Below, piece by piece: positions 1-42,182 of a stretch of 51,137 nt of DNA. Under the pieces are notes generated by a model. The model was not told where the DNA came from. It saw only the letters and a program-made list of their open reading frames with translations, and made no database searches. Origin of the DNA: a virus (taxonomy: Duplodnaviria > Caudoviricetes); IMG/VR virus record IMGVR_UViG_3300037962_000135, positions 1 through 51,137 of that record, one strand, 5' to 3'. The first letter of the stretch is position 1, and the number at the start of each line of letters is the position of its first letter. The position numbers were made by a program, and so were the translations under genes.

Positions 1-143
1 CTGCATGGGTTAGAAAGGTAGCGTATGAGGCATTACAACGTGAATTTACTAGCTCAGAATATAAAATTGCTGAAGCCAAAGACGAGTTGATGTGGAGAGA
101 ATCTGTACAAAGACGAATTGACGGAAGAAAGCAGAAAGACTAA
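1..143 (+). CDS. 3' end of small DNA-binding (RHH/CopG-like) protein, truncated by window start
   Basis: 4 mismatches in 143 nt against 37490..37632, all synonymous. Ends in TAA at 141-143. Confidence 0.8.
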   Translation, partial: AWVRKVAYEALQREFTSSEYKIAEAKDELMWRESVQRRIDGRKQKD

Positions 144-158
144 AACAACTTTTAAAAA

Positions 159-356
159 ATGAAAAGAATAACTTGGGTCGAGTGCCCAGGCTGTAAAATG
201 TACAGCGATCAGAAGGTTGTCCGTTCTGAAAGAAATTCAAAATTTATAACTATTCGTAGAAGAGAATGTTATGAATGTGGACATAGATGGGAAACGATCC
301 AATATCCTGAGATTATAGTTTCCAAGCAACAGGCAGCCTACGCTCGGTGTGAGTGA
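159..356 (+). CDS. NrdR N-terminal-like zinc-ribbon protein
   Basis: CPGC...RRRECYECGHRWETIQ motif. Paralog at 37983..38180 differs at 2 of 65 aa. Confidence 0.75.
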   Translation: MKRITWVECPGCKMYSDQKVVRSERNSKFITIRRRECYECGHRWETIQYPEIIVSKQQAAYARCE

Positions 357-670
357 CGCTTTGTTATATGTCTATACTTTAAGTGCATATAAAACTGCTC
401 CATCCACCATCTAAGTTTGTAAATTCCTGTACTCTTTTTTGTTTTGGTTTGCAGTACAGCTAATGTTGCTTCTAATTCTATTACTCTCATCATTGCTTTA
501 GATAGTACGGCTTCAGCCCTTGCATGGTTCTTCATCATGTCTATGCAAAAAGCTTTTATGGTTTTTATATCTTCACAAGCCCACACTTCTCTACATCGAA
601 GTTCTATCGCTAGTTCCACTTCGGGAGATAGCTCCGTGTGAATCATTTTCATAAACCCGTCATCTTTCAT
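338..670 (-). CDS. Hypothetical phage protein (helical/coiled coil)
   Basis: Homologous to 38162..38494 (shared KAFCIDMMKNHAR). Same 19-bp convergent overlap in both units. Confidence 0.75.
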   Translation of the reverse strand: MKDDGFMKMIHTELSPEVELAIELRCREVWACEDIKTIKAFCIDMMKNHARAEAVLSKAMMRVIELEATLAVLQTKTKKSTGIYKLRWWMEQFYMHLKYRHITKRHSHRA

Positions 671-671
671 G

Positions 672-848
672 TCATTGAAGAGAGGTAGTAGAACCTGGAA
701 ACATTCTGGCTTCTATAAAAGCAACTGCTTGATCGTCTATTGTATTGTCCGTTTGCTTGGCTATTGCCTTTAACAAATCCACTATCAATCTTTTCATTGC
801 CTTGGATTTAATAAAGACTAGAAGGATAGGTTTTAGAATTTTTACCAT
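672..848 (-). CDS. 58-aa conserved small protein (TDNTIDD motif), not in ORF track
   Basis: Hand translation MVKILKPILLVFIKSKAMKRLIVDLLKAIAKQTDNTIDDQAVAFIEARMFPGSTTSLQ. Same-length homolog at 38496..38672. Confidence 0.85.
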   Translation of the reverse strand: MVKILKPILLVFIKSKAMKRLIVDLLKAIAKQTDNTIDDQAVAFIEARMFPGSTTSLQ

Positions 849-913
849 CGTTTTTATGTGTTACTTCCCAAACATAGCTACTTTGCTAGTATTAGACAAG
901 AATCTTTACTTTT

Positions 914-1183
914 ATGGCTGAAGAGAAAGAAGAAAAAGAAGGTATTGAATGGGGTGAACTTTTTGGTCATGCGATCAGATTTCTGATTTTGACCTGGAGT
1001 TTATCAATGATGACTTTGGGATACATGGGTAAGGTAAGGATTGATGGAGCGTTTACGGCTGGACTCGTCAGTGGGGTGCTCGGAAGCTATGGAATTTCAG
1101 TAGGAAACAAGAAAAGTGGCACAAATAACAGTAATAGTCCTAAAATAGTAGATAATAGTAAAAACAAAGTAGGTATCAAATGA
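914..1183 (+). CDS. Two-TM membrane protein (holin-like topology, function unproven)
   Basis: Acidic N-terminus, two hydrophobic segments around IDGAF, basic C-terminus. Homolog 38756..39052. Confidence 0.7.
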   Translation: MAEEKEEKEGIEWGELFGHAIRFLILTWSLSMMTLGYMGKVRIDGAFTAGLVSGVLGSYGISVGNKKSGTNNSNSPKIVDNSKNKVGIK

Positions 1184-1665
1184 AAAGACTACTACCTTTT
1201 ATATTTCTTGTATCTGCACCAGCTTATGCGGACATGAATCATTCCATATCATCCAGTGTAAAGTTTGAATCACTTTCAGCAGCTAGTACAGCTGATAAGA
1301 TCGGTAGTTCATACAGTATCTCAGGTAATAATGTAACAACTGTGGACTCAAATTCAGCAGCTACAATAGGTGGGTTTGGTTCTGTTACAAATGGCGTACC
1401 AGCAGTAACTTTTCCTTCTGCTACGCAAGCGACTTCGGGAGAAGCCTTTAGTTTTACTACTAGCTATTTGGAAGGAGATGCCACCCCAGGTAGTGCAGTT
1501 ACAGTAGGAACTGTACCAAACTTCAGTGATTTAACCTCAACTTCTGCTGGAAGTGTAGGAACAGCAGCAGTAGCAATAGATAATCACACTATTACGATGA
1601 CACCTGGAACTGGAACGGGTATTGTAATGACAGGTCAGTTTGTCGTTGATCTCACTATCGAATGA
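1180..1665 (+). CDS. Exported Ser/Thr/Gly-rich protein with signal peptide
   Basis: MKRLLPFIFLVSAPAYA|D signal peptide; ATGA-coupled. Homolog 39049..39555. Confidence 0.85.
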   Translation: MKRLLPFIFLVSAPAYADMNHSISSSVKFESLSAASTADKIGSSYSISGNNVTTVDSNSAATIGGFGSVTNGVPAVTFPSATQATSGEAFSFTTSYLEGDATPGSAVTVGTVPNFSDLTSTSAGSVGTAAVAIDNHTITMTPGTGTGIVMTGQFVVDLTIE

Positions 1666-2087
1666 GGAGGCTACTTCTTCTTGGCTTTGTTATATCTGCT
1701 CCTTGTTACGCTGTGCCAGTTATACCTAATTTTACGCAGGGTAGTTCCACCAGCCGAACCGAAACTACCACAAATATTACAGAGACTATACGAACAACAG
1801 AATATAATTCTGGGTTTCTTTACTCAGTTACAGGATCGGGTATTCAGCATGACGGATCTTCTATTACTCCAGCAGCTACCTCAGTTAGTGAAACAATAAA
1901 CGGAACTACTCATACATGGCAGGGATTAAATCTAGACCAAAGACCAAACTGGACTCAAACAAATCAGGGAGATGCTTTTCAATTTACAGAAGTTTATCAA
2001 GCACCTGGAATGGAATCCGTAACAGACATTACACGCACGATCCAAAGCACAAGCGTCACAGATACCACAACTATCTTCTCGCAATAA
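1662..2087 (+). CDS. Exported Thr-rich protein with signal peptide
   Basis: MRRLLLLGFVISAPCYA|VPVIPNF. Homolog 39559..39999 shares PNFT, YxVTG, AFQFTE, IFSQ/VFSQ. Confidence 0.85.
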   Translation: MRRLLLLGFVISAPCYAVPVIPNFTQGSSTSRTETTTNITETIRTTEYNSGFLYSVTGSGIQHDGSSITPAATSVSETINGTTHTWQGLNLDQRPNWTQTNQGDAFQFTEVYQAPGMESVTDITRTIQSTSVTDTTTIFSQ

Positions 2088-2695
2088 GTCTGCTAGGTAA
2101 TCCTGTACTAGCTAATACAAGCAATACGGCTGCTCCAAGTGCATCGGCCTCTGGATCGGTTTCAAACTTTGCGACCCAAGTTTTAGGTGGACCAATGGTA
2201 GAAAATACATACGGAAATAATATCAAGTGTTCTGGGCCACAAATGACAGTAAGCCCATTTGTCACTACATCGTTCAACCAAAAAAGGCCACAGGACTACA
2301 TTTACCATACACCCGTGTACGATCCAACAGACGCAAATGATGATGGAGTGCCAGATAATCCAGGAAATGTACTTTATTATCAAGAAAACTACAGTGGTAA
2401 CAAGGATTCTTTAGGACTTAACTTTGGATTCGCACTTACATTTAATATTCCGCTAGATAAAAGATTTCAAGATTCTTGTCTTGACGCAGCTAATACACAA
2501 ATAAATTTACAGAAACAAGAATTAAATGCAAAGCTGCTCAACTATGAAATAGCCCGTTTAAAAAATTGTGGAGAATTATACTTAAAGGGAATTTCTTTCG
2601 ACCCTAAATCTAACTTTGCAAAATTATGCGAAGGGGTCGTTGTTCAACCGCCTCCAAATCAAGTTATACCTCACAGTCATAAATTAAAGCAGTAG
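1916..2695 (+). CDS. Exported/envelope protein with Cys pairs; start uncertain
   Basis: Internal signal-like segment (LLAISLLGNPVLA|N), DANDDGVPD motif, FGFALTFNIPLD strand, 4 conserved Cys. Homolog 39813..40595. Confidence 0.8.
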   Translation: MAGIKSRPKTKLDSNKSGRCFSIYRSLSSTWNGIRNRHYTHDPKHKRHRYHNYLLAISLLGNPVLANTSNTAAPSASASGSVSNFATQVLGGPMVENTYGNNIKCSGPQMTVSPFVTTSFNQKRPQDYIYHTPVYDPTDANDDGVPDNPGNVLYYQENYSGNKDSLGLNFGFALTFNIPLDKRFQDSCLDAANTQINLQKQELNAKLLNYEIARLKNCGELYLKGISFDPKSNFAKLCEGVVVQPPPNQVIPHSHKLKQ

Positions 2696-2721
2696 ACAAG
2701 CACGGGTTTTAACTTGTCTAC
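2692..2721. other. Conserved hairpin between convergent genes
   Basis: GTAGACAAG-cacgggttttaa-CTTGTCTAC. Covarying copy at 40592..40623. Confidence 0.6.
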
Positions 2722-2728
2722 CTAGACG

Positions 2729-2767
2729 CCCTATCCATTGCCTTGGCGAATAGGGTTCTTTTATTTT
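2729..2767 (+). terminator. Possible intrinsic terminator
   Basis: CCCTAT...ATAGGG stem followed by TTCTTTTATTTT. Absent in unit B. Confidence 0.4.
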
Positions 2768-3399
2768 AACTTATCTTTCTTCTTTGTCAGCTTTTTTATT
2801 AGGTTTTTTACTAAGGGTTTGACAATATTAAGCAGTAATGGAGTAGAGGCAGCAACAGTAGCAATAACAGCAGTGCTAACAAGCTGTGGAGGATTCGGTA
2901 TGTATTGCTCGATGAATTTAGTGCTTTCATACAAGGTTATACATTCACTACCATCTTCGCTTCTTTCATGTCCAATGACACGTTCCAGTTTAAATTCGTT
3001 ACGATAATCCCCTACTCTTTGATCTTTTTTGCCAGGACAGGCAACAAAAAGCGGATCATCTTTTTTCTTTTTTGGTTCGTATTTTGGAGGTTCTACCGTT
3101 GGTTGAACAAATTCTTGTTCCTGATTTTGGGGGGTTTCTGATTGTGTATATACAAATTCGTTGGGGTTATACTGCAAAGGTTCAAAACTAGGAATACTGA
3201 AGTTACCACATTCTGTATATGTGCCGTATTCATCTTTATCACTATCAATGAGACTTGTAAGATTATTTCTATGTACTCTTACACAACCAGGAATATCAAC
3301 TATAGGTTTACTTATGTTATTTAATGTTGGTACGTTAGGCTTCCATATCGGTATTTTATGAATCTCAATCCTGTTTACACTAATCTTTGGTATTTCCAT
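2761..3399 (-). CDS. Cys-containing protein with C-terminal membrane anchor
   Basis: PGCV..HR, CPG..DQRVGD, ECITLYE, hydrophobic tail followed by basic residues. Homolog 40630..41271. Confidence 0.85.
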   Translation of the reverse strand: MEIPKISVNRIEIHKIPIWKPNVPTLNNISKPIVDIPGCVRVHRNNLTSLIDSDKDEYGTYTECGNFSIPSFEPLQYNPNEFVYTQSETPQNQEQEFVQPTVEPPKYEPKKKKDDPLFVACPGKKDQRVGDYRNEFKLERVIGHERSEDGSECITLYESTKFIEQYIPNPPQLVSTAVIATVAASTPLLLNIVKPLVKNLIKKLTKKKDKLK

Positions 3400-3607
3400 C
3401 TTTTATATCTCCTATAGAAATAGACCAGCCATCTTCTCCAAACTTACCTTTTTCTACAATCTTAGGTTTTTTTACTTTTTTATCTAATTCTTCGTGATAT
3501 TTTTTTATGTCATTATCAAGTTCTAAATTGAATTTTTGCATACGCATCCAATGGATAAACTTATCTACATAGTATTTAACTAACTTTTTTATAAAACCAA
3601 ATATCAT
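3380..3607 (-). CDS. Hypothetical protein
   Basis: Nearly identical homolog 41258..41479; coupled to neighbours. Confidence 0.8.
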   Translation of the reverse strand: MIFGFIKKLVKYYVDKFIHWMRMQKFNLELDNDIKKYHEELDKKVKKPKIVEKGKFGEDGWSISIGDIKDGNTKD

Positions 3608-3759
3608 TTTGGTAAATAAACTTCTACATAAGAATTACATTTAGGACAAGATAAATTAGTTACCATTGAATATTCTTCTGAAAGAACAGGTTGAAAATCT
3701 TCATCAATACTATGATCTCCACCCCAGATTAATTCGGTTTTACAATGCCAGCAGTTCAA
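3604..3759 (-). CDS. 51-aa CxxC...CxxC zinc-ribbon protein, not in ORF track
   Basis: TTG start; NCWHCKTELIWGGD...NLSCPKCNSYVEVYLPK. Stop/start overlaps on both sides. Homolog 41479..41646. Confidence 0.85.
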   Translation of the reverse strand: MNCWHCKTELIWGGDHSIDEDFQPVLSEEYSMVTNLSCPKCNSYVEVYLPK

Positions 3760-3986
3760 ATTCCTAATCCTTTTGGTATTGGTAATGATTCTCCTGTAAC
3801 ATCAGGTAATTCTTTTTCCAGTATTTTTGGCATCATGCCTTGAACATTCCCAAGGATCTCATTCATTACTTGAGACTTAAAATTTTCAGATGTTACATAT
3901 TTGTATGCAAAGTACATTCCACCGCTCATAGAGGCTACCATTACAAATGAGACAATACTTAAAATGTTTGCGATTTTTTGAAACAT
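3756..3986 (-). CDS. Small protein with N-terminal TM segment
   Basis: MFQKIANILSIVSFVMVASMSGG is identical in homolog 41643..41864. Start taken at the conserved Met. Confidence 0.85.
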   Translation of the reverse strand: MFQKIANILSIVSFVMVASMSGGMYFAYKYVTSENFKSQVMNEILGNVQGMMPKILEKELPDVTGESLPIPKGLGI

Positions 3987-4137
3987 GGTCAAAGAAGTTC
4001 TTAATAAAATGGTAGCACCACTTACTCTGATGGTGCTGTTGCTTCTTGTGGGGTTGATGCCTCTGTATCTGATGGCTGGTTTGCTTCGGGTTCAGCTTCA
4101 AGAATCTGTTGTTCGAGAATCTTCATTGCACCGCTGA
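3985..4137 (+). CDS. 50-aa antisense single-TM peptide, not in ORF track
   Basis: MVKEVLNKMVAPLTLMVLLLLVGLMPLYLMAGLLRVQLQE... aligns without gaps to 41863..41994. Confidence 0.7.
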   Translation: MVKEVLNKMVAPLTLMVLLLLVGLMPLYLMAGLLRVQLQESVVRESSLHR

Positions 4138-4207
4138 CTTCATATAAAGCAATTTGTAAATTTTGCCTTTCAATAGCAAGTTGTTGTAGTTTTTCTTTAA
4201 GATTCAT
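4022..4207 (-). CDS. Small coiled-coil protein downstream of tail fibre
   Basis: ORF in the fibre operon with heptad-like N-terminal half. The acidic tail overlaps the antisense peptide. Confidence 0.65.
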   Translation of the reverse strand: MNLKEKLQQLAIERQNLQIALYEVSGAMKILEQQILEAEPEANQPSDTEASTPQEATAPSE

Positions 4208-4210
4208 AGT

Positions 4211-4459
4211 TTAATAGAGTTTTTTACCAGCAACAATAGCAGCATCTATGGCTGTAAAATCTTCTGATGTCCAGATAGATGTCGTTCCATCTAGCTTTTT
4301 GTAAGCTTTAATAATTTCGAGATGCTCTACATTTCTCTGAATTTTTTCTTTAAATTCAGCTTCAGTTTCATCGCCTGTTTTTGCTGTGTCAATAACAGTA
4401 ACGCTATCACCAGCACCAGAATAAATTACTGCAATTTCTTCTGCGGTTTTTTCTTCCAT
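4211..4459 (-). CDS. Tail-fibre-associated hypothetical protein
   Basis: Directly follows the fibre gene; IQRNVEHLEI...WTSEDFT motif. Confidence 0.7.
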   Translation of the reverse strand: MEEKTAEEIAVIYSGAGDSVTVIDTAKTGDETEAEFKEKIQRNVEHLEIIKAYKKLDGTTSIWTSEDFTAIDAAIVAGKKLY

Positions 4460-4485
4460 AATTAAAAAATTGGATTACTTTTAGT

Positions 4486-7400
4486 TTACCCTGCTTCGAG
4501 GGCTTTGACTTTTACGGATAACTCTTTTACAGCATTAACTAAATACCACATTAAATTATCAGAATTTACAGTCTTAATACCATACGATGATGTTTCTACA
4601 CATTCAGGTAATACTTCTTCAAGTTCTTGTGCAATTACACCAATTTGTTGACCAGATTTATCTACTGCTACGTTTTTAGCTACTTTTTCTAATTCTGGAT
4701 TATTTTCAATAATCTCTTCTAAAGTTTTATATTCAAAATTCCGTATTTGGATTTTTTCAAGTAAATTTATTCCAGAATTATTATTAACAATATTTTTCTT
4801 TATTCTTCTATCAGAAGTAGTTGACCAACTAGAGCTATTATCACTTTGGAATGAACCCGAAGATGCTCGGACTTTAAAAGTATCACTACCAGCACCAGCA
4901 ATGTTATATCCTAAAACTATTGACCTGTCAGAATTTCCAACCCTTGAATAATTACCAATAGAAATATTTTGCCCACCTGTTGTAGTATGGGAAGAATATG
5001 CAGCAGCGTTGTAACCTATAAAAACATTATCAGTACCAGTTGTAACGTAATAACCAGCAGCGTTTCCAAGAAAAGTTTGTGAATGTCCCGTAGTCAGGTT
5101 GTATCCAGCTTCACGACCAACACAGGTATTTAAATTAGCAGTTGTTTGATTGTACGCTGCTCTTATTCCAACAAAAACATTATTATCACCTGTAGTTAAG
5201 TTATAACCAGCAGCATAACCTATTGCTGTGTTCTGACCACCATCAGTTGATAATGCTAAAGCATAAGAACCTACTGCTGTACAATCATTATTTACATTAT
5301 TTCTTAATGCAAAATAACCAACGGCTGTGTTGTCATTGTCGGTGGTATTAGCCATTAATGCAGCAACTCCTACCGCAGTATTTCTAATTCCTGTTGTGTT
5401 GTCATAAAGGCCATTATGACCTACGGCAGTATTGTAATTTCCAGTTGTGTTGTCGTGTAATGTATGACAACCTATTCCAGTATTCTCAATTCCTGTTGTA
5501 TTGCTCGTGAGTGCTTTATAACCAAAAGCATTTATTTTCGTTCCTGTCGTGTTTGCGTCTGCGGTATAAGCTCCCATAGCCGTATTCTCACTCGCAGTTG
5601 TATTAGAAGTAAGGCATTTATACCCAACAGCAGTATTGTTACTAGCACTTGTATTGGAACCTAAAGCACCTGATCCAATCCCAACATTATTACTTCCTGT
5701 GTTAACTCTTAAAGCTGGTTGTGCTGAACCATCAAAAGCACCTACAGCAGTATTTCCTGTTGCTGTAGTTACGTCACCTAAAGCAAACCTACCAATCGCA
5801 ACATTTCCAACGCCTGTAGTTAAATCATCTAGTGCATGTGATCCAACCGCAATACAGTTATGAGCTCCAGTTGCAGTATCCATTGCGTTATAGCCTATTG
5901 CAACGTTTTCAACAGCAGTTGTACTGCTAGTTAACGCATTTACACCGATAGCCACATTGTAATTACCTGTAGTGTTAGCATCCAAAGCAGCAGTACCTAC
6001 AGCAGTATTCGATGATCCAGTTGTGTTTTGATCTAAAGCATGATAACCCACAGCAGTATTATTATCTGCTGTAGTATTTGCAGATAAAGCTCCCTTACCA
6101 ATTCCAGTGTTTTGAGCACCAGTTGTATTTAATACAAGAGCAGCAAGACCTACAGCAGTATTGTCACTAGCGGTAGTATTTGCAGCTAAAGCGGTTTCTC
6201 CTAAAGCGGTGTTTTGCGAACCAGTTGTGTTTGCTCCTAAAGCACTTCTACCAACCCCAGTATTGTTATTTCCAGTAGTGTTAGCATCTAATGCGTTAGC
6301 ACCTACAGCAACATTTTGAGTTCCAGTTGTGTTTGCATCTAAAGCGTAATATCCAACTGCTGTGTTGTTAGATGCTGTTGTGTTATTAGTTAATGCAGAC
6401 CTACCACAAGCAGTATTATTTGCACCTGTCGTGTTTAATACTAAAGAATTATATCCAATAGAAGTATTTGCATTTGCGGTTGTATTATTAAATAATGCTC
6501 TCCTGCCTATTCCAGTATTTTCTGTTCCAGTTGTATTTGAAGTTAAAGATTGATAACCTATTGCGGTGTTAGCGGCTGCCGTAGTATTTGCATCTAACGC
6601 ATTTGCACCTAAGGCTGTGTTTTCTGTTCCAGTTGTGTTTACTCTTAACGCATTAACACCGACAGCAACATTATTATTGGCTGTAGTGTTATCTCCCAAA
6701 GCACCACTACCTACAGCAGTATTATCTGAACCAGTTGTGTTATCCGTAAGAGCGAATTGACCAATTGCAGTATTAGCACCTGCTGTAGTATTAGCATCTA
6801 AAGCAACATATCCTACCGCAACATTCCCTGCTCCAGTTGTGTTTAACAATAAAGCTTGATAACCAACTGAAGTGTTATTATCTGCCGTAGTGTTTTCTCT
6901 TAAAGCACCAGAACCAACAGCAACATTAAAATCTCCAGTTGTATTGTATCTCATTGCCTGAAGACCTAATCCAGTATTATTAGCACCTGTCGTATTACTA
7001 TTTAAACTCCTTACACCTAATGCAGTATTATTATCACCAGTTGTATTTACGTCTAGACATAAACTACCTACAGCAGTATTTGAACCTCCAGTTGTGGTTA
7101 ATTTAAGAGCATCATGTCCAACGGCAGTATTATTTGAACCAGAAGTTAAAGTTGTTAATGCTGAATTTCCAATCGCTGTGTTATCTGCACCAGTAACAGC
7201 AGCATCTAAAGCACTTTCTCCAAGAACAGTGTTACCAGCAACAGAGTTTGCACCTTTACCGACAGTTAAAGAATTTATTGTCGCATCAGCAGTTGTTGTA
7301 ACCCCTCCAGTCAATGTTCTTAAATCAATCCAGCCGTCATTTGCTGAATTACGCATTTTTAATAAATTATTACTTGTATCAGCCCACAACATATATGCAG

Positions 7401-7521
7401 CAGTGGTACTAGGAGCAGAACCAGAACTGTTATTTGTTAATATCGCTTGCAGTACATTATTTAAATCAGTTCGGACATTAGCTCCAGTGGAGTTATCTAT
7501 TACATAATCGTGAGTAGCCAT
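4486..7521 (-). CDS. Long tail fibre with NTAVG repeats and C-terminal intramolecular chaperone (peptidase S74-like)
   Basis: 14-aa repeats NTAVGxxALxxNTT; C-terminal SDRRIKKNI...GVIAQE...LVNAVKELS. Confidence 0.9.
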   Translation of the reverse strand: MATHDYVIDNSTGANVRTDLNNVLQAILTNNSSGSAPSTTAAYMLWADTSNNLLKMRNSANDGWIDLRTLTGGVTTTADATINSLTVGKGANSVAGNTVLGESALDAAVTGADNTAIGNSALTTLTSGSNNTAVGHDALKLTTTGGSNTAVGSLCLDVNTTGDNNTALGVRSLNSNTTGANNTGLGLQAMRYNTTGDFNVAVGSGALRENTTADNNTSVGYQALLLNTTGAGNVAVGYVALDANTTAGANTAIGQFALTDNTTGSDNTAVGSGALGDNTTANNNVAVGVNALRVNTTGTENTALGANALDANTTAAANTAIGYQSLTSNTTGTENTGIGRRALFNNTTANANTSIGYNSLVLNTTGANNTACGRSALTNNTTASNNTAVGYYALDANTTGTQNVAVGANALDANTTGNNNTGVGRSALGANTTGSQNTALGETALAANTTASDNTAVGLAALVLNTTGAQNTGIGKGALSANTTADNNTAVGYHALDQNTTGSSNTAVGTAALDANTTGNYNVAIGVNALTSSTTAVENVAIGYNAMDTATGAHNCIAVGSHALDDLTTGVGNVAIGRFALGDVTTATGNTAVGAFDGSAQPALRVNTGSNNVGIGSGALGSNTSASNNTAVGYKCLTSNTTASENTAMGAYTADANTTGTKINAFGYKALTSNTTGIENTGIGCHTLHDNTTGNYNTAVGHNGLYDNTTGIRNTAVGVAALMANTTDNDNTAVGYFALRNNVNNDCTAVGSYALALSTDGGQNTAIGYAAGYNLTTGDNNVFVGIRAAYNQTTANLNTCVGREAGYNLTTGHSQTFLGNAAGYYVTTGTDNVFIGYNAAAYSSHTTTGGQNISIGNYSRVGNSDRSIVLGYNIAGAGSDTFKVRASSGSFQSDNSSSWSTTSDRRIKKNIVNNNSGINLLEKIQIRNFEYKTLEEIIENNPELEKVAKNVAVDKSGQQIGVIAQELEEVLPECVETSSYGIKTVNSDNLMWYLVNAVKELSVKVKALEAG
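4900..7240 (-). repeat. Degenerate ~42-bp coding tandem repeat in tail fibre
   Basis: On the order of 50 NTAVG/NVAVG units in the translation. Boundaries approximate. Confidence 0.85.
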
Positions 7522-7563
7522 TACCTAATCCAATTTTTTATCTAAGTATATCTTAATTCAACT

Positions 7564-10500
7564 CTAACTACCACGCCCAAATCCCGTTGCAGCATATTTG
7601 AAATTTCTATTAACAAAAGTCTCATTTCCAGATGTATCTCTATTTTTTACATCTATCGTAAATCCTGTACCAGAAATACTAGATAAAGCAAAAAAGTCTC
7701 CAGCCTGGGCATTTTCTAAAGTAATTCCGATATTAGGCAAATAAGCAGAAGTAGATCCACCAAGTTCAGAAGTTCCTGTAAAGAAAGCGTGTTGGAACGT
7801 AACTGCTTTACTAGATGTTCCAGATGCTATTACAGTATTTACAGTTTCAGTTCTGCTATCTAATTTTGCTGTATAACCAAGTTCATCTATCTCGATAGAT
7901 TGTGCAGGATCATCTGAATCCATCTCACATCTAAATCTAAACCCACGACCAATAAATGTTCCGTTCATAAGAGTATTAAATTGAGTAAATCCTGCTCCGA
8001 TATTACAGTTGCTACTTGATATTGTTGCACTGGATGAGGCAGTGACAGTAAAAGTACTACTGCTTGGTACAGATTGAACCTCAAAATATCCATCTGTTGC
8101 ACCACCACTTGTAAAATCAATATCTACAAACGTACCAATGCTAAATCCATGGCTAGATTTTGTCACTGTGATTGTCGTTCCAGATTGTGTATAAGTAGCC
8201 GAATCAGATGTAGCTGGATCGCTGTCAGTTGTTGCTACCAATAGTTTTGCATTGACATCAAATGCAGTAGCACCATCAAAATCTGTCCAAGTATCTATAT
8301 TTGCAGTTCTTTTATCAATCAAATCATTAGGATAAAAACCTTGTGTAACAAGATGTCTTGTTAATTTAAGTGGTTGTTTACCACCTAAATCCAACTTAGA
8401 AGCAAAGTCATAATGACCACCAGTAATATCAACAGCACCTAAAAAATCAAAGTCAGCAATAGCATCGAAATCTGTAACTCCATCTAATAAATCAAGCGAT
8501 CCAAGGACAAGACCATTTACATCATCAGAAAAGAAACAATCAACTTTATCTCCAGCAAAAGGTGTCGCATCAGTATCTTCTCTATCTGCTAATACAAGTA
8601 ACTTCGGTACAGGATCAGGAGTTGTTACTATAATAGAAGTCTCTCCAGAACTTAATCTGTTACCATCATCTTTAAATTTAAGGATATACTCTCCATCAAC
8701 TGCTGGTACTAATGTCTCAGATACGTTCCCTGGTAATGCAAATATAGCATCAGTAGCATTTGTAAATGTAGCTGTTCCATCAGTTTTATTGCTATGTCGA
8801 ACAACTACGTTTCCACCATGCGTAACATCAATATCTGTAGCCTTATCAAAACGTAATCTAATAAACTGATCTGATACTGGTTCGACAAGTAATCCTGTAA
8901 CATCCTGTGGAACTGCTGTTTTACCAACAGCTTCAAACGTAATGTTGGTTGATGTTGCGGACAAAACATTCTGAACATTATATGAAAACACCTGGATTGT
9001 GTAAGTTCCTTTTCTGCTATTTACTATTTCAAAATCAGGTCTAGATACTTTTTCACTAATAAAGTTATCATTACCAAATCTGTAGTTAACCTGATATTCA
9101 GTAACACCAACTATAGGTTGCCAGCTAATAATTATTTTTGATACAGCTTGATTGTTGATAGGAAATATTCTTTCAACAGCACTTAGACCAGAAGGAGGTT
9201 CAGTAAGTGCATTTAATTTAGATACTGTCCTAGCTGGTAGTGCTTCACCATCTTCAATAAATGCGTACTTTCCTTCAACATAAGATAAAGCTGTAATCGC
9301 ATAATTTATGCCATCTTGCTCTTCTACTGTTATCACTCTAAATAATTGTGACTTAACAGTTACGTTTGATATAAGCCAGATAGTGTTTACGTTAGGTGTC
9401 TGTGAAAAAGCAGAACTTACAGTTATAGTCCCATTTGATACAGATGAGATTGTCCTACTTTCAGACGTTCCATCGGGTAAAAGTACGCTGAGAGTTGCAT
9501 CTCCTACAGGGTTTCCGCTTGCATCTACAGCAAAATCTGTTGCAGAAGTATCATCGACAGTAACAACAGTTGTTGAAGTAACGCTTTTTAATCTTCCTCC
9601 TCTTCTTACCCCTGCTCTTACTGGATCTTGTATTTCTATGACAGCACCAGGGCGAACAATTACTCCAGAATCTATAGATGTTGTGAAAGTGCATACCTCA
9701 GACTCATTATTTTCCCCGAAAACAATAGCTTTTGCCAATCTTTTTGCTTGCCCTCTAGAAGTACAGCCAAATGCCTGTACTTTTTTGACAACTGTACCTA
9801 TCTTCGCTATTAAATCTGTATCTTCATGTACTTCAAAATCTATTTGCTGGCTATCCATGTTGAAGTAAGATACAGATACAACACTATGTCTTGTTTTAAG
9901 ACTACTTCCCGCATAACTGAATCCAGCCTCCCCCACATTTGATAAGTTAAATAGATAACTTGGATCGGTAGGCTTGTCCTGTGTAATTGTTATCGAACCA
10001 GCAGACCAAATTGGCATACATCTCATTACACCAGCTAATTCATTTATTAATTCAAATGCTTCCTTTGAACTTTGAATATTTACATTGCAACTAAACCTGG
10101 CTTCCTGTCCTCCCTGTCCATCATCTACAAGTGTGTTAGCAAACTTACTGGCATTTACAAAACTAAAAAGATCAAGGGAACTGTCTGTTATATGATCTCC
10201 AAATCCATATCTACTTGTAGTTAAAAGATCAAGCAAAATCATCGCAGGACATGAACACCATGTAGCAGCACCCATGACCCCATTAAAAATATAGCCGTCA
10301 GGATAAACAATACGACCAGTATTAATATCAACAGTGGGAGTTCCAGAACTAGATGCTCCTGCTCCTGGAATCCTTACTTTTATTCCTCTTATTCTGAACT
10401 TTCTATCTGGAATAGAACTGAACTGCATAGAATCCAGACGCAAAGCACTATAAGCACTGTTGTTGTAAGTACGAGCTTCTTCAACTATTTCGCCAAAACT

Positions 10501-11226
10501 TGTCCATTGAAAAGTATCTTGGACATTAGTATCTGTTGCATCATCTGTAACTCTACTAACTCTAATATCCACTGGAAATGCACCCGTTATTTGCACCCCG
10601 TAATCTCTTTGGTATGCATCTCCACTTCTACCCGTAATTGTATCTGTTGTTTCTCCGTTACTTCCTATAGCTAAATCAGTAAAACCTCCAGAATTATATT
10701 GAACAGCTATTTTTAGTTGAACAGAAGTACCTAATAAGTCTCCATCGTCAGTTGCTCTTTGTAACTGAGGAAAAGTAATTGTTACTCTTACCTTATCAAC
10801 ATTCGTATTCGTAATTTGTCGAGTGACAGGAATATCTTTAGTTACTGTGACACCAACACTTGTTGTAGATACACTGCTATCTATATTTGGTATAGCAGTT
10901 TGACTATCCGTACCAAATCTAGGATTGAAAGTTACATTTTGAAAATTTCTATCTACGTCTTGAACATCAGTGGAATCTGCTGAAGCTCTTATAACAGGAG
11001 TATCATTTAAAAATACATCTTTCAATGCAGCATTATTATATGCAGTTGTGCCTTTTGTTCTGCCTTCTTTAGATGCAGTAGCAAAACCTTCTATCTCTCC
11101 TTCCGATATTAAATCTAAAAAAGTAGCATACTGTCTACTATGAAGATTATCAGGATCTCTAGTTGGCGATGGAGGTGTTGGATTTCCACCTTTTGCTCCT
11201 CTAATAATACGTTTCGTATCACTCAT
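7564..11226 (-). CDS. Tail tip/host-specificity protein, lambda gpJ-like (unit A)
   Basis: IRGAKGG start, DLISEGEIEG, PAMILLDLLT, ARFSCN, GCTSRGQA motifs, FN3-like region. Confidence 0.92.
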   Translation of the reverse strand: MSDTKRIIRGAKGGNPTPPSPTRDPDNLHSRQYATFLDLISEGEIEGFATASKEGRTKGTTAYNNAALKDVFLNDTPVIRASADSTDVQDVDRNFQNVTFNPRFGTDSQTAIPNIDSSVSTTSVGVTVTKDIPVTRQITNTNVDKVRVTITFPQLQRATDDGDLLGTSVQLKIAVQYNSGGFTDLAIGSNGETTDTITGRSGDAYQRDYGVQITGAFPVDIRVSRVTDDATDTNVQDTFQWTSFGEIVEEARTYNNSAYSALRLDSMQFSSIPDRKFRIRGIKVRIPGAGASSSGTPTVDINTGRIVYPDGYIFNGVMGAATWCSCPAMILLDLLTTSRYGFGDHITDSSLDLFSFVNASKFANTLVDDGQGGQEARFSCNVNIQSSKEAFELINELAGVMRCMPIWSAGSITITQDKPTDPSYLFNLSNVGEAGFSYAGSSLKTRHSVVSVSYFNMDSQQIDFEVHEDTDLIAKIGTVVKKVQAFGCTSRGQAKRLAKAIVFGENNESEVCTFTTSIDSGVIVRPGAVIEIQDPVRAGVRRGGRLKSVTSTTVVTVDDTSATDFAVDASGNPVGDATLSVLLPDGTSESRTISSVSNGTITVSSAFSQTPNVNTIWLISNVTVKSQLFRVITVEEQDGINYAITALSYVEGKYAFIEDGEALPARTVSKLNALTEPPSGLSAVERIFPINNQAVSKIIISWQPIVGVTEYQVNYRFGNDNFISEKVSRPDFEIVNSRKGTYTIQVFSYNVQNVLSATSTNITFEAVGKTAVPQDVTGLLVEPVSDQFIRLRFDKATDIDVTHGGNVVVRHSNKTDGTATFTNATDAIFALPGNVSETLVPAVDGEYILKFKDDGNRLSSGETSIIVTTPDPVPKLLVLADREDTDATPFAGDKVDCFFSDDVNGLVLGSLDLLDGVTDFDAIADFDFLGAVDITGGHYDFASKLDLGGKQPLKLTRHLVTQGFYPNDLIDKRTANIDTWTDFDGATAFDVNAKLLVATTDSDPATSDSATYTQSGTTITVTKSSHGFSIGTFVDIDFTSGGATDGYFEVQSVPSSSTFTVTASSSATISSSNCNIGAGFTQFNTLMNGTFIGRGFRFRCEMDSDDPAQSIEIDELGYTAKLDSRTETVNTVIASGTSSKAVTFQHAFFTGTSELGGSTSAYLPNIGITLENAQAGDFFALSSISGTGFTIDVKNRDTSGNETFVNRNFKYAATGFGRGS

Positions 11227-11843
11227 GCCTGTACCTGTTCAGTATCTACGGAAGCACTAATTACAACCGATCCAGTGAATATTTCTCCGTAAACTATAGG
11301 AACGGGTGTGCCAGCCCTTGATGTATTCTGTAGTCCATTAAAACTAAAAGATAATCTAGGATCTTCCTCTGAACTAAAATCTGGCTTTTTAGGTAAAGGA
11401 GTTAGCATTTCAGAAACTCCAGTAAGAACTAAAGCTATACCTATATTTCCTGCAAATGCAGCAAAACTAAATGCTCCAGATGCAGTTGCAAATCCTCCCC
11501 CTAAACCCCCTGGTCCAAGACCGAAACCTACAGTTGGATTTATGATTGCAAACCCAATTAATACAGCACCCAGTAATATCTTTCCTAATCCTCTACCAGC
11601 ACCCGTTATTACAGGAATTAAGTGTATATCCTGTTGCCCTATTGGATCTCCTAGTTCAGTTTTATCTAGCTCGTAATCTCCAACTTTTAATTTATAGTAT
11701 CTATCATTCATGTGCTGCTCGATTCCAGGGAAATTATTTATCAAAAAACTCATTGCGTGAGCTAAAGTATCCGCTTTTATTTCAAATTCTTTATGACCTA
11801 CAAACTTTGCAAGCTCTCCATATAATTTTATTTTACGAAGCAT
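11223..11843 (-). CDS. Tail assembly protein, lambda gpI-like
   Basis: IKLYGELAKF start, IHLIPVITGAG, FSFNGLQNTSRAGTPVPIVYGE. Confidence 0.9.
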   Translation of the reverse strand: MLRKIKLYGELAKFVGHKEFEIKADTLAHAMSFLINNFPGIEQHMNDRYYKLKVGDYELDKTELGDPIGQQDIHLIPVITGAGRGLGKILLGAVLIGFAIINPTVGFGLGPGGLGGGFATASGAFSFAAFAGNIGIALVLTGVSEMLTPLPKKPDFSSEEDPRLSFSFNGLQNTSRAGTPVPIVYGEIFTGSVVISASVDTEQVQA

Positions 11844-12534
11844 AACGATACCTCTTTCCTGTACATTTTAATAACCACGGAGAATATGGCTCTCTACAAG
11901 ATAGTCTATCGGTTAAATGATGTAATACCTCATCTCCAAGAAAAATAGCTACATGATTTAAAGTTGAATCTAAAATACTCATTAGTAAAACATCTCCAGA
12001 TTGTAGCTTTTCATCTGGCCTTAATTCTCTAAAACCTGTTCGCCAAGCATAACTTTCAAATAAAGGATCTTTCATAAACTCTTCTGGGGTTATAGGTCTT
12101 TCATAGTCTTTTAACTTTATTCCTTTCTCCTGCTTATAGTAATCACGAACCAAAGACCAACAGTCTGTTACACCCCATACCCATTGTCTACCTAAAAGGG
12201 GTGCTTCATAACCCTGCGGTTCATAATATCCCCACTGTTTTGTTTTTGGATTAACTATGTGCCAAGGTAATCCACTTTGTTCACAACTGACTTTATCCGC
12301 CTGACTAGCTATCGCAGGAGTTGTCGGATGACTGTGAACAACAGCAACTATATCTCCCAGATTATCGGCCTTTACATAATCCTCTGGATCGAGAATGAAA
12401 CATTGATGTGCTGTCATTGAAAGATTACGACAAGGATAATATCTTTCTTTTCCTCGAACATTTAACAAAAGACCAACAGATTCTTTTGGATCTTCTATCT
12501 CAGCATGATTAAGTGCAGCGTCTTTCCAATTCAT
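11833..12534 (-). CDS. Tail assembly protein, lambda gpK-like (JAB/MPN + NlpC/P60)
   Basis: VHSHP...SQAD JAMM motif; DCWSLVRDYY and NHVAIFLG..VLHH. Confidence 0.92.
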   Translation of the reverse strand: MNWKDAALNHAEIEDPKESVGLLLNVRGKERYYPCRNLSMTAHQCFILDPEDYVKADNLGDIVAVVHSHPTTPAIASQADKVSCEQSGLPWHIVNPKTKQWGYYEPQGYEAPLLGRQWVWGVTDCWSLVRDYYKQEKGIKLKDYERPITPEEFMKDPLFESYAWRTGFRELRPDEKLQSGDVLLMSILDSTLNHVAIFLGDEVLHHLTDRLSCREPYSPWLLKCTGKRYRYAS

Positions 12535-13109
12535 CCTACAACTGTACCTACTGAAGGAAATTCTGCTCTAGTGCATTGTCTATTAGGAGCACGAATACCA
12601 GCAAGATCAAATACAGCAGCTAATTCAAACTGAACCACCTCTCTATTCTCTGCTGATTTTCTATCTATTTTGTATATTTCTTGTGGAAACTCTGCTGTAG
12701 CATCTGGTGTTCCATAAGGATTTATGTCTCCAGGAAAATTTACAGCGTCAATGAATCTTGCCAAAGTTCTGATACGAGTAACAGTTGCACCAGTAAGATC
12801 ATTTCCAGTGGTTGTGGCATTTACTGTAAGTAAGATAGATGTAATTGTTCCCAAAGCATTGCTTACTGTCAAGGTGGGGCGAGGTAACTGCCCTTTTGTA
12901 AAGGCAAAACCTTCGGCTTTTACAGGAAATCTTTGATATGTGTTTCCTGCCCAAACTACTTCTCCGTTATCTTTTAAAGATGAACCAGCATGGAATCTGT
13001 AAACTGTGCTCGATCCATGTAAACTACTGTCTAAAGTAAGAGTAAATAATTCAATTATTGCTGATGGGTTTATATTCTGAAGATTGCTAACGATAGCAGA
13101 ACTGCTCAT
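12531..13109 (-). CDS. Minor tail (hub) protein, lambda gpL-like
   Basis: IIELFTL, WAGNTYQRFP, LPRPTLTVSN, VTRIRTLARFIDAVNF, VQFELA. Confidence 0.9.
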   Translation of the reverse strand: MSSSAIVSNLQNINPSAIIELFTLTLDSSLHGSSTVYRFHAGSSLKDNGEVVWAGNTYQRFPVKAEGFAFTKGQLPRPTLTVSNALGTITSILLTVNATTTGNDLTGATVTRIRTLARFIDAVNFPGDINPYGTPDATAEFPQEIYKIDRKSAENREVVQFELAAVFDLAGIRAPNRQCTRAEFPSVGTVVG

Positions 13110-23989: not shown

Positions 23990-25246
23990 TTAGTATATTC
24001 TAAACGAAGTTTGGCCTAATGTCTCTGGTTTGGCAAGGTTAAATTGCTGGAGACAGAGGTAGCCGAAAGCGTCAAATGCGTGGTCAACCCCAAGGTTTTT
24101 ATTTGGCATACCTGTGTTTGGAGCGTAAGTCAGGGTGCGTAAAGACTTTATCAGTTCTTTGCAACGTGGGTGGATAAGAGTTCTGCGTTCTCCCATTGCG
24201 TCATATAGTGCAGTGTTGATTGCGGTTACTTTGTCACGAACTTTCCAGGGGGATCTGGGAGATGACACAGTAAATCCACTTCTGCGTAGAATAGTATGGT
24301 CCGTTGATCCTACTCCTGATGTTTTTCTGGCAGATCCCGTTGGGTCGGGACAAGCGATGATTCTTCTATCTACTCCGTAACGATTTGTAACTTCTTCGGC
24401 AAAATCCCAAGTTGTTGCACCACCTGTCAAAATTATCTCGTCAAAGACGTAAAGGATGTCTCGGTAGCGGACTGCACATATACCGCAAAGTGGATCTACG
24501 TTAAAATCAACTCCTAATAAAAGTGGGGCGATGGATATGTCCTCCGCTTCGGTAGAAATGTTGGAATCTGAAAAGGAGACTGCAACGAGACCAGTGAGAT
24601 TCTCGAAACTTGCCTCGAACTCCTGCTTGAATGTTCTTCTATCTAGTTGGGCCTTGGCTGCTTCGACTTCTTCTTCTGGAACATTGCCCCCTTCTACTGT
24701 TGTAAAGCTCCAGCGTTTCCAATCTCCTGATGTATCTTCTGGAACGTAGCACCATAAATCGTAAAACCATGAGGCTGTGCCATCTGGTGTAGATATAAAT
24801 AGTGCCCATCCCTGTTTATCTGCGAGGGCTGGTCGAATAACTTGGAACCAGACTTCGGAATCCATAAAGGCTGCTTCGTCAAGTACTACTCCAGCTAGGC
24901 TTCGACCACGCAGGGTTGTTGCATTTTCTGTGCCCTTGAGTTCGATTAGCGATCCATTAATTAGTTCAATTTTGAGGTCGGTTTCGTTTTTGGATTGGAT
25001 CCATTGGGGTGGTATGAGTTTCTTTATTTCTTTCCATGCGATGTCTTTTGCCATGCGATAGGTTGGGGCACAGTAAAAATATGTTTCGCCTGGGCGGTCT
25101 ATTGCTGCTTTGAGTAGTTCGATACAGGATAGGTAAGATTTTCCGAATCTTCTACCAGCGACCAGTACCCTAAATCTGTTTTTTGCGTTGAACACCTCTC
25201 CCTGTGCCCATCTAAGGGAGAGATTTTCGGCTGTTTTTGTACTCAT
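23990..25246 (-). CDS. terL: Terminase large subunit
   Basis: Walker A GRRFGKS, Walker B VVLDEAAF, ISTPDG, nuclease GVDFN...DHAFDAFGY. Confidence 0.95.
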   Translation of the reverse strand: MSTKTAENLSLRWAQGEVFNAKNRFRVLVAGRRFGKSYLSCIELLKAAIDRPGETYFYCAPTYRMAKDIAWKEIKKLIPPQWIQSKNETDLKIELINGSLIELKGTENATTLRGRSLAGVVLDEAAFMDSEVWFQVIRPALADKQGWALFISTPDGTASWFYDLWCYVPEDTSGDWKRWSFTTVEGGNVPEEEVEAAKAQLDRRTFKQEFEASFENLTGLVAVSFSDSNISTEAEDISIAPLLLGVDFNVDPLCGICAVRYRDILYVFDEIILTGGATTWDFAEEVTNRYGVDRRIIACPDPTGSARKTSGVGSTDHTILRRSGFTVSSPRSPWKVRDKVTAINTALYDAMGERRTLIHPRCKELIKSLRTLTYAPNTGMPNKNLGVDHAFDAFGYLCLQQFNLAKPETLGQTSFRIY

Positions 25247-37386: not shown

Positions 37387-37632
37387 ATGGCTCTCAAACA
37401 CGGAAACAAAAGCTATTATCAGGTACTAATCGACCCAAATAGAGCAGAACTTATAGAAAAGGTAGCTGACAAAGAGGGTATGCGTGGTACTGCATGGGTT
37501 AGAAAAGTAGCGTATGAGGCTTTACAACGTGAATTTACTAGCTCAGAATATAAAATTGCTGAAGCCAAAGATGAGTTGATGTGGAGAGAATCTGTACAAA
37601 GACGAATTGACGGAAGAAAGCAGAAAGATTAA
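37387..37632 (+). CDS. Small DNA-binding protein (RHH/CopG-like)
   Basis: Strand YYQVLID then two helices (EKVADKEGMRGTAWVRKVAYEAL). Confidence 0.65.
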   Translation: MALKHGNKSYYQVLIDPNRAELIEKVADKEGMRGTAWVRKVAYEALQREFTSSEYKIAEAKDELMWRESVQRRIDGRKQKD

Positions 37633-37642
37633 AACAACTATT

Positions 37643-37831
37643 ATGTCTATTTATTTTCGATCATCACTAGGGATTGCTTTCCCGAAAAGTCCTTACATCG
37701 GACAAATTTATTACGATCCAGACTTAAAGAGAACCTTCAGATATGAAGAAAAAGATTTTGGAGATTGTATCCTCAAATCCACTATTGATTGGTTTCACTG
37801 GGTCGATATTACAGAAAAAGACATTATCTAA
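37643..37831 (+). CDS. Hypothetical protein, present only at the unit B junction
   Basis: MSIYFRSSLGIAFPKSPYIGQIYY...; absent between 143 and 159. Confidence 0.6.
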   Translation: MSIYFRSSLGIAFPKSPYIGQIYYDPDLKRTFRYEEKDFGDCILKSTIDWFHWVDITEKDII

Positions 37832-37836
37832 ATACT

Positions 37837-37986
37837 GTGCCAAAAGGTAAGTATTACGAATATCAAATCAAACGTGCTGCACTAGATGACGACTATCTTA
37901 TGGGTAATATTGATGAACTTCAATACACTAAAGAGTCACTTGATCTAGACCTTAAATATGAAAAATACATTCAACGCAAAAAATGA
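37837..37986 (+). CDS. Hypothetical protein, present only at the unit B junction
   Basis: Probable GTG start, PKGKYYEYQIKRAALDD...; ATGA overlap with 37983. Confidence 0.55.
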   Translation: MPKGKYYEYQIKRAALDDDYLMGNIDELQYTKESLDLDLKYEKYIQRKK

Positions 37987-38180
37987 AAAGAATAACATGG
38001 GTCGAGTGCCCAGGCTGTAAGATGTACAGCGATCAGAAGGTTGTCCGTTCTGAAAGAAATTCAAAATTTATAATCATTCGTAGAAGAGAATGTTATGAAT
38101 GTGGACATAGATGGGAAACGATCCAATATCCTGAGATGATAGTTTCTAAGCAACAGGCAGCCTACGCTCGTTGCGAGTGA
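37983..38180 (+). CDS. NrdR N-terminal-like zinc-ribbon protein (unit B)
   Basis: Homolog of 159..356. Confidence 0.75.
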   Translation: MKRITWVECPGCKMYSDQKVVRSERNSKFIIIRRRECYECGHRWETIQYPEMIVSKQQAAYARCE

Positions 38181-38494
38181 TTCTTTTGGTGCTGTCTTAT
38201 CTGTCTTATAAGTTTTACTTTTTCTACAAATAAACGAAATTTGTAAAATAATTTATTTTTAATTGGTGGTGTCTGCAATACAGCTAATTTTGCTTCAAGC
38301 TCCAGCATACGCATCATTGCGTTAGATAGCACAATTTCGGTTCTTGCATGATTCTTCATCATATCTATGCAAAAAGCCTTTAACTTATCTATATCATCAC
38401 AACCCATAACTTCTCTACATCTCATTTCAACTGCTAACTGTGTCTCCATCGGCAGAGGAGTTGAGATAAATCTTATGAAGCTGTCATTTTTCAT
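38162..38494 (-). CDS. Hypothetical protein (unit B)
   Basis: Homolog of 338..670; start at MKNDSF. Confidence 0.75.
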   Translation of the reverse strand: MKNDSFIRFISTPLPMETQLAVEMRCREVMGCDDIDKLKAFCIDMMKNHARTEIVLSNAMMRMLELEAKLAVLQTPPIKNKLFYKFRLFVEKVKLIRQIRQHQKNHSQRA

Positions 38495-38495
38495 A

Positions 38496-39555: not shown

Positions 39556-39558
39556 TTT

Positions 39559-41646: not shown

Positions 41647-41864
41647 TTTTTAGGCATAGGAATAGAAGGACCAGATATATCAGGCATTGTATTGTCTAAC
41701 ACTTTGGGCATCAATGTTTGCACATTTGCCATAATTTGATTCATCATCTTTGCTTTAAACTGCTCTGATGTGAAGTATTTATAAGCAAAATACGTTCCAC
41801 CACTCATGGAAGCTACCATTACAAATGAAACTATGCTAAGAATATTAGCAATTTTTTGAAACAT
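41643..41864 (-). CDS. N-terminal TM protein (unit B)
   Basis: Homolog of 3756..3986. Confidence 0.85.
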   Translation of the reverse strand: MFQKIANILSIVSFVMVASMSGGTYFAYKYFTSEQFKAKMMNQIMANVQTLMPKVLDNTMPDISGPSIPMPKK

Positions 41865-41994
41865 GATTAAATTTGCAATTTTAAAAGCACTATCTTTTTC
41901 AAGTGTGCTTGTATTACTGCTTATTGTAGCCCTATCCCCTCTCTACGTCACTATGGGGTTAATGACAAGACAAATGCAAGAAAAGGTTAATTAA
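41863..41994 (+). CDS. 43-aa single-TM peptide (unit B), not in ORF track
   Basis: MIKFAILKALSFSSVLVLLLIVALSPLYVTMGLMTRQMQEKVN exactly fills the gap between two minus-strand genes. Confidence 0.75.
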   Translation: MIKFAILKALSFSSVLVLLLIVALSPLYVTMGLMTRQMQEKVN

Positions 41995-42179
41995 TCAGCA
42001 GCTTCGGGTTCGTTGCCATCTATAGCTTTCCATTCAAGGTACTTTTGGTAATCCCTGTTTCCTTCATCAAATGGAATAAATTTTGTATTAGAATCTTCGT
42101 CAACAATTTTTACACTTTCTTCTTTGTTTGAAAAAGGGTTTTTTACTAATTTGTAAATTGGATTAGTTGGAAATGCCAT
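41991..42179 (-). CDS. Small tail-fibre-associated protein
   Basis: FIPFDEGNRDYQKYLEW motif; follows a fibre-like gene. Confidence 0.7.
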   Translation of the reverse strand: MAFPTNPIYKLVKNPFSNKEESVKIVDEDSNTKFIPFDEGNRDYQKYLEWKAIDGNEPEAAD

Positions 42180-42182
42180 AAT

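Follow-up and report, generated by a model that had tools for sequence, protein, structure and literature searches.

A conserved gene for a small putative membrane protein lies start-to-start with the MFQKIAN gene in P-HS2/MED4-184-like Prochlorococcus siphoviruses

The window analysed here is an entire IMG/VR virus record of 51,137 bases and belongs to the P-HS2/MED4-184-like type of Prochlorococcus siphovirus. Its closest cultured relatives are the Prochlorococcus siphoviruses MED4-184, P-HS2, and MED4-117, whose genomes measure 38.3-38.8 kb; P-HS2 is described, in the accessible part of a published account, as lytic, 38 kb in size, and completing its cycle in 17-23 h (PMC7852597). The record amounts to about 1.33 genome lengths of this 38-kb phage type, and positions 1-12,722 (unit A) correspond to diverged counterparts at positions 37,490-50,727 (unit B), with 65-97% identity in the aligned pieces. 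Two diverged 13-kb copies in one record suggest an assembly that passed from one strain to a related one, or a mixed concatemer. Positions 1-154 and 37490-37643 were 96.8% identical, and the record was scored 100% complete despite holding two diverged copies of one 13-kb segment. Rfam and tRNA scans of the window gave no match.

The replication genes of the window are on the plus strand. On the minus strand, from about 25,250 down to 4,490, PHROG and Pfam scans identified the large terminase, portal, scaffold, and major head protein, together with a tail terminator, minor tail proteins, a gpJ-like tip protein, and a fibre protein. This late array of about 22 kb, running from the terminase to the fibres and then into the MFQKIAN cluster, contains a single plus-strand gene, which encodes the small putative membrane protein described here (hereafter the peptide; Table 1). 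The neighbouring MFQKIAN protein corresponds to phrog_568, labelled 'plasmid stability', and to T4-GC_414 of cyanomyoviruses; its alignment had a mean column identity of 81%.

Table 1. Features of the peptide loci in the two units of the window.
Feature	Position	Strand	Basis or remark
Small membrane-protein gene (putative), unit A, 50 aa	3985..4137 (stop included)	+	ORF list, family alignment, pN/pS
Small membrane-protein gene (putative), unit B, 43 aa	41863..41994 (stop included)	+	ORF list, AlphaFold2
CATG common to the divergent start codons, unit A	3984..3987	.	
CATG common to the divergent start codons, unit B	41862..41865	.	
MFQKIAN gene, unit A, 76 aa, N-terminal hydrophobic segment	3756..3986	-	phrog_568, E 8.7e-16
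MFQKIAN gene, unit B, 73 aa	41643..41864	-	phrog_568, E 3.6e-16
Four-gene cluster headed by MFQKIAN, unit A	2761..3986	-	
Convergent 61-aa ORF, unit A	4022..4207	-	ORF list, pN/pS
Convergent 62-aa ORF, unit B	41991..42179	-	phrog_5784, E 4.3e-07
Antisense ORF overlap, 116 nt, partitioned constraint, unit A	4022..4137	.	
Terminator-like hairpin followed by ACCATTTTAT	4014..4037	-	Spans the stop of 4022..4207, inside the peptide ORF
Block ATTTTTTGAAACATG, unit A, with in-frame TGA at 3979-3981	3973..3987	+	Opposite strand is MFQKIAN codons 1-5
Block ATTTTTTGAAACATG, unit B	41851..41865	+	Exact match
Terminase	23990..25246	-	ORF map and PHROG

A sequence-only reading of the window had proposed that, in both units, MFQKIAN and a plus-strand peptide start in the same CATG, and that the two peptides align without gaps. 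Both statements were confirmed (3984-3987 and 41862-41865), with the 17 identities in 40 positions that had been claimed and 18 in 43 overall. The unit A peptide was, as described there, antisense to the 4022..4207 gene, with 116 nt in common (4022-4137), and in unit B the TAA of the peptide and the TAA of the 41991..42179 ORF did overlap in a TTAA (41991-41994). An in-frame TGA is located two codons upstream of the peptide ATG (3979-3981; 41857-41859), so this ATG is the first possible start and the N-terminus is fixed. DNA similarity between the units ends at 3993/41871, 6 nt beyond the CATG, and returns only at 8236/46321; therefore, the conserved DNA includes neither the peptide genes nor the fibre modules. 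One related locus (L001) encoded a MFQKIAN protein 96% identical to that of unit A, yet a peptide identical to that of unit B, and recombination therefore seems to occur at or beside the CATG.

In siphoviruses, a 212-aa tail-anchored phrog_570 protein comes after MFQKIAN in the clusters corresponding to 2761-3986 and 40630-41864; the two genes adjoin in MED4-184, while the window has a zinc-ribbon ORF (51-55 aa) and a 75-aa ORF between them. Moreover, the ORFs matching DUF6322 (phrog_650) and phrog_848 overlapped on the same strand, as listed, by 172 nt in unit A (1662-2087 and 1916-2695) and by 187 nt in unit B (39559-39999 and 39813-40595). The annotated phrog_848 start differs between two RefSeq records of relatives (overlap of 11 nt versus 139 nt), and the true start of this gene is therefore uncertain.

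Conservation was assessed in two sets of 80 related IMG/VR loci, with the MFQKIAN proteins of unit A and of MED4-184 as queries; these sets were the best 80 of at least 558 and the best 80 of at least 589 confirmed relatives, and represent the closest relatives rather than a census. After removal of 10 duplicates from the 160 loci fetched, 150 distinct loci were obtained, 144 of which were evaluable. A complete ORF of 40-54 aa was present in 142 of the 150 distinct loci. Among the other eight, one ORF was open to the contig end (L126), one had an internal deletion of the helix and an early stop (L075), and six loci were cut by the contig end before the motif. The ORF was open in 143 of the 144 evaluable loci, and frequent interruption in relatives was not observed, with one broken copy in the same 144. 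This copy (L075:2380-2502, minus strand), from which the membrane helix is deleted, was the sole natural knockout candidate, so the peptide gene may be dispensable in some settings.

Codon-level comparison agreed with the coding status that had been proposed for the ORF. In 48 short-type sequences (first 38 codons), the median dN/dS of the peptide frame was 0.25 and no stops were found, versus dN/dS values of 0.40-2.30 and 0.9-6.5 stops per sequence in the other five frames; these dN/dS values come from pooling pairwise comparisons of related sequences and are not tree-based estimates. Summed diversity by codon position in 74 unique sequences was highest at third positions (22.1), followed by first (16.2) and second positions (9.7). 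As judged from these sequence comparisons, the peptide gene is shown to be under purifying selection in its own frame. The ORF is almost certainly a real protein-coding gene, and it belongs among the core genes of P-HS2/MED4-184-like Prochlorococcus siphoviruses. That it is no gene, its frame being open by chance or through constraint on the opposite strand, would be in keeping with its short length, with the lack of a Shine-Dalgarno sequence, and with the lack of annotation in GenBank or RefSeq records. However, such a frame can hardly be expected to stay open in 143 of 144 evaluable loci and to have the lowest dN/dS of all frames. In addition, unit B and most lineages have no other ORF covering the peptide ORF and, in the lineages that have one, the covering frame shows no constraint over the helix.

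The peptide and MFQKIAN starts were at most 9 nt apart in all 142 complete loci. A CATG common to both starts was found in 129 of these loci; the starts abutted in four others (three with CATATG and one with a GTG start, L109), and were separated by a spacer of 1, 6, or 9 nt in three loci each. The CATG start palindrome, put forward from the two units as a shared feature, is thus usual but not obligatory; since 13 of the 142 loci abut or have spacers of 1-9 nt, start overlap itself is not required. The feature that is always kept is the absence of intergenic DNA between the two starts. It had also been stated that the leader of each gene lies inside the coding region of the other, and any leader must indeed do so with starts this close in every complete locus. 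In the accessible part of one survey, most prokaryotic overlapping genes are unidirectional (PMC3887535), and our literature search found no reports of overlapping divergent start codons in phage. The head-to-head packing observed here is unusual and strongly conserved.

The ATTTTTTGAAACATG block was invariant in 72 unique sequences. Within the MFQKIAN gene, the third positions of codons 2-4 were also invariant in the 72 unique sequences; the major-base shares were 0.40-0.96 at third positions of codons 5-12 and 0.58-0.94 at the other invariant two-fold codons. Two of 42 unique upstream strings carried one G change in the block. Its invariance fits a role at the nucleotide level; the block might, for example, be an A/U-rich site at which ribosomes land to translate the peptide or MFQKIAN, and it may be considered a candidate region, short and A/U-rich, for translation initiation on the peptide mRNA. 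When read from the window sequence, neither the peptide start nor the MFQKIAN start had a Shine-Dalgarno sequence; AT-rich hexamers resembling a -10 box were seen by eye 14-25 nt upstream of both ATGs. A repeated regulatory motif was also considered for ATTTTTTGAAACATG and rejected: exact copies were found only at 3973 and 41851, and 11 sites had three or fewer mismatches versus 7.0 expected.

Sixty-six unique members of the protein family were aligned. P26 and L27 were invariant, while M1, L24, and Y28 were nearly so. The best 19-residue Kyte-Doolittle mean was at least 1.94 in all 66 members, and AlphaFold2 predicted the unit B peptide as a single helix (residues 2-42, mean pLDDT 89.5). From the N- to the C-terminus, the peptides are characterised by a lysine-bearing N-terminus, the invariant Pro-Leu at mid-helix, then the nearly invariant Tyr, and a short, basic or polar C-terminus. 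The product is very probably a membrane helix, and the protein, of 40-54 residues, would consist essentially of one membrane-spanning helix. The transmembrane peptide seen in the two units is accordingly upheld, by dN/dS, Kyte-Doolittle values, and AlphaFold2, as the product of a real gene for a transmembrane helix. In unit A, codons 1-34 formed a constrained core and codons 35-50 an unconstrained tail. An origin of the peptide by inverted duplication of the MFQKIAN N-terminus was rejected (hhalign probability 0.1%). A complex prediction for the peptide and MFQKIAN, each entered as an alignment and run without controls, gave a score of 0.01, which is evidence neither way.

The convergent neighbour of the peptide gene belonged to at least eight unrelated families across the loci, and the same peptide subtype was found beside at least three different neighbour families. 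The suggestion that the peptide outlasted replacement of the adjacent fibre module therefore stands, and the gene is shown to be independent of this module. The gene downstream of the fibre module encodes a short protein, of 53-77 aa in many loci, which is swapped among many unrelated versions; several of these fibre-side proteins (4022-4207 and counterparts) appeared by eye to be coiled-coil-like with a polar or acidic tail.

The position beside this module may have a bearing on function. A superinfection-exclusion or receptor-masking protein, tied to the host-range module and made early from the strand opposite the late genes, would account for the opposite orientation of the gene next to the fibre module, for its faster divergence relative to MFQKIAN (42% versus 70% identity between units A and B), and for the loss of unit-to-unit DNA similarity 6 nt beyond the CATG. 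This role is nevertheless unlikely: the peptide has no family match at the sequence level and, being found in the same subtype beside at least three neighbour families, it is not matched to one fibre type.

The 3' overlap of the convergent neighbour with the peptide ORF was mostly 0-29 nt, the commonest being 4 nt (TTAA); long overlaps of 116-128 nt were observed in two partner families and lineages only. In the unit A family, pN/pS of the peptide over the helix (codons 14-34) was 0.21 in eight sequences of 50 aa and 0.09 in seven sequences of 52 aa, versus 14.8 and an undefined value (pS 0) for the partner, respectively. Over the tail (codon 35 to the end), the values were 4.95 and 1.88 for the peptide and 0.14 and 0.46 for the partner. 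The second family, represented by 10 of 16 unique sequences (the six with a different partner stop were left out), had pN/pS values of 0.45 for the peptide and 2.79 for the partner over the helix, and of 2.59 and 0.20, respectively, over the tail. The 4022..4207 ORF was constrained over the peptide tail (4087-4134), and its acidic tail, antisense over the peptide membrane helix, was unconstrained. The overprinting proposed for unit A is thus real as an overlap of 116 nt, but constraint on the two frames falls on different codons, and purifying selection of both frames at the same codons, which defines an overprinted pair, was not found. By these measures, the free tail of each ORF covers the constrained core of the other, and the arrangement is not double coding of the same codons.

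No known family was recognised for the peptide. Pfam and PHROG scans of both window peptides returned no families. Among the 66 members, the best NCBIfam match had an E value of 0.015 (MakA, one member), an unrelated family, and the best Pfam match one of 0.026, all such matches being to unrelated families; no holin or type I toxin family was matched in PHROG, Pfam, or NCBIfam. The best scores in the protein atlas were 0.85, for weak neighbours in clusters without a name, and PDB sequence searches with three neighbours gave nothing meaningful. A tblastn search of the peptide against the phage collection found no match although MED4-184 carries it, for which the low-complexity filter or the short query is probably responsible. 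Indeed, a profile search matched MED4-184 and MED4-117 once each (E 3.9e-24), and the MED4-184 ORF (L081:3161..3292) had the same CATG and TTAA; in MT490303, the ORF is at 3204-3332 on the minus strand. The same kind of search in 1.84 billion representatives gave 58 matches at E ≤0.001 and 33 at E ≤1e-10. The peptide family is small and lineage-bound.

No CDS was annotated at the peptide ORF in NC_020847, NC_020857, MT490303, JF974286, or JF974321, and no description of the gene was found in the accessible parts of the P-HS2 literature that we located. In metagenome gene calls, 67 clusters at 90% identity were found, all without a name or called 'hypothetical protein' and without a Pfam domain. 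The peptide that had been called hidden is therefore hidden in isolate records, which have no CDS for it, but not from metagenome gene callers, which list it as a hypothetical protein. It is a new small-protein family of a generally known kind, namely short phage membrane proteins missed by annotation. Small-protein catalogues built from metagenomes cover this broad category, in which short ORFs go unannotated in isolates, as far as the accessible part of one such study goes (PMC11364881).

The same searches and the overlaps bear on a type I toxin-like role, according to which the peptide would be a self-limiting membrane peptide whose mRNA would pair with that of MFQKIAN (and, in unit A, with that of the convergent gene), resulting in mutual repression. 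The peptides resemble this class physically, having 40-54 aa (less than about 60 aa), being hydrophobic, and being predicted as one helix, which holds for holins as well. The mutual antisense control inferred in the sequence-only reading is geometrically possible, but gained no support from the promoter scans or from the Rfam and protein-family searches. With starts no more than 9 nt apart, any leader is antisense to the other gene, and two lineages have 3' antisense overlaps of 116-128 nt. We nevertheless consider this role decidedly improbable, as no toxin family was matched in NCBIfam or Pfam and no RNA in Rfam, the partner RNAs would be ordinary mRNAs, the start overlap is 4 nt or none and variable, most lineages have a 3' overlap of 0-29 nt, and purifying selection acts on the gene, which belongs to the single-copy core of a lytic phage.

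The location of the peptide gene within the late array means that RNA polymerase from a late promoter must cross it head-on to reach MFQKIAN, unless the MFQKIAN promoter is inside the peptide ORF. Third positions inside the peptide ORF showed no conserved block that would mark such a promoter. The promoter scan gave no sites in unit A and three in unit B, all on the minus strand, versus 3.8 expected; a plus-strand promoter was predicted in neither unit, and the counts were at or below chance. Between the fibre side and MFQKIAN, only 21 of 144 unique segments had a terminator-like site on the MFQKIAN-sense strand. In 14 of the 21, this site was the hairpin at 4037..4014, present in the unit A lineage only, which could stop late transcription before most of the peptide gene is crossed. 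Finally, one metatranscriptome run, with a small share (0.06), contained a 121-nt contig over 4000-4089 that continued as a 52-aa variant; such contigs are unstranded and do not prove an RNA origin.

Orientation is also central to a possible role as a holin or antiholin, in which the peptide would time lysis, perhaps with the membrane proteins of the MFQKIAN cluster. A small membrane helix immediately after the tail-fibre module would suit this role. Moreover, no endolysin, holin, or spanin family was recognised when 65 window ORFs were compared with PHROGs and 19 ORFs with Pfam, so the lysis genes may be among the unrecognised ORFs. However, the gene is oriented against the late operon and is not co-directional with it, no recognised endolysin adjoins it, no holin family was matched, and T4-like cyanomyoviruses also have MFQKIAN paired with phrog_570, but no peptide was found there (the phrog_570 homology of the 204-aa gene being presumed). 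We therefore regard this role as rather improbable. Apart from the criterion of a small, hydrophobic, single-helix protein, the type I toxin and holin labels fail in their testable features.

The best explanation as a whole, for which we see the chances as even, is a core membrane-helix gene with an embedded promoter that is expressed outside the late programme and encodes a membrane effector. The peptide gene would be transcribed on its own, from a promoter within the first MFQKIAN codons, and the existence of such an embedded promoter is, taken by itself, evenly balanced. Its mRNA would have a very short A/U-rich leader with the invariant ATTTTTTGAAAC block and no Shine-Dalgarno sequence, and the peptide would be inserted into the host membrane. 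Late minus-strand transcription would then cross the peptide gene head-on en route to the MFQKIAN cluster, so that the peptide would probably be synthesised only before late transcription or in competition with it. Limitation of its expression by head-on or antisense transcription is a tentative proposal, and a somewhat doubtful one. The product may be an accessory effector at the membrane, synthesised apart from the late programme and serving superinfection exclusion or the timing of lysis; any one named role is, individually, unlikely at best.

The start-to-start arrangement could also be read as a two-way switch, in which polymerase or ribosomes load one gene at a time; an early peptide and a late MFQKIAN membrane module would therefore be mutually exclusive, and the peptide would delay exclusion or lysis until late transcription silences it. 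We consider such a switch improbable; if it were true, the zero-intergenic packing found in all 142 complete loci would be the selected feature.

P-HS2-type siphoviruses are among the few cultured Prochlorococcus siphoviruses, and most of their genes have no known function. A conserved membrane protein missed by isolate annotation is a testable candidate for phage action on the host envelope. As the peptide codons from the second onward are outside MFQKIAN, a nonsense mutation can knock out the peptide while leaving its neighbour untouched. The locus also provides a clean natural case in which two genes have stayed start-to-start, with zero intergenic DNA. Moreover, long antisense ORF overlaps that arise through tail extension, without double constraint, call for caution before overlaps are described as overprinted genes.

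Several known systems resemble the locus in part. In the T4-like cyanomyoviruses P-RSM1 and metaG-MbCM1, a gene of about 204 aa (T4-GC_219) comes after the MFQKIAN homologue, in the same order as in the siphoviruses, but the gene upstream of MFQKIAN is co-directional and no peptide was found; the peptide profile had no match in P-RSM1 and one chance-level match with internal stops in MbCM1. Some type I toxins, such as those of tisB/istR-1, shoB/ohsC, and zorO/orzO, have a divergently transcribed antisense RNA. They share with the peptide gene a hydrophobic product of less than 60 aa with one helix, and a divergent neighbour whose 5' region would be complementary to that of the peptide. Here, however, the neighbour is a conserved protein gene and not a small RNA, the start overlap is at most 4 nt, no toxin family is matched, and the gene is a core gene of a lytic phage. 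The T7 gene 17.5 holin comes after the tail-fibre gene, and holin-lysin cassettes follow the fibre genes of many siphoviruses. As in these phages, a small membrane protein closes the tail-fibre module; however, the T7 gene and the cassettes are co-directional with the late genes and beside an endolysin, whereas the peptide gene runs on the other strand, in a window without a recognised endolysin. Finally, llp of T5 is a small membrane-associated exclusion gene that adjoins the receptor-binding protein gene. Although no lipobox was evident by eye in the peptide, and its subtypes are shuffled among neighbour families, the two systems, compared by description only, have in common a gene for a small envelope protein beside the host-range module.
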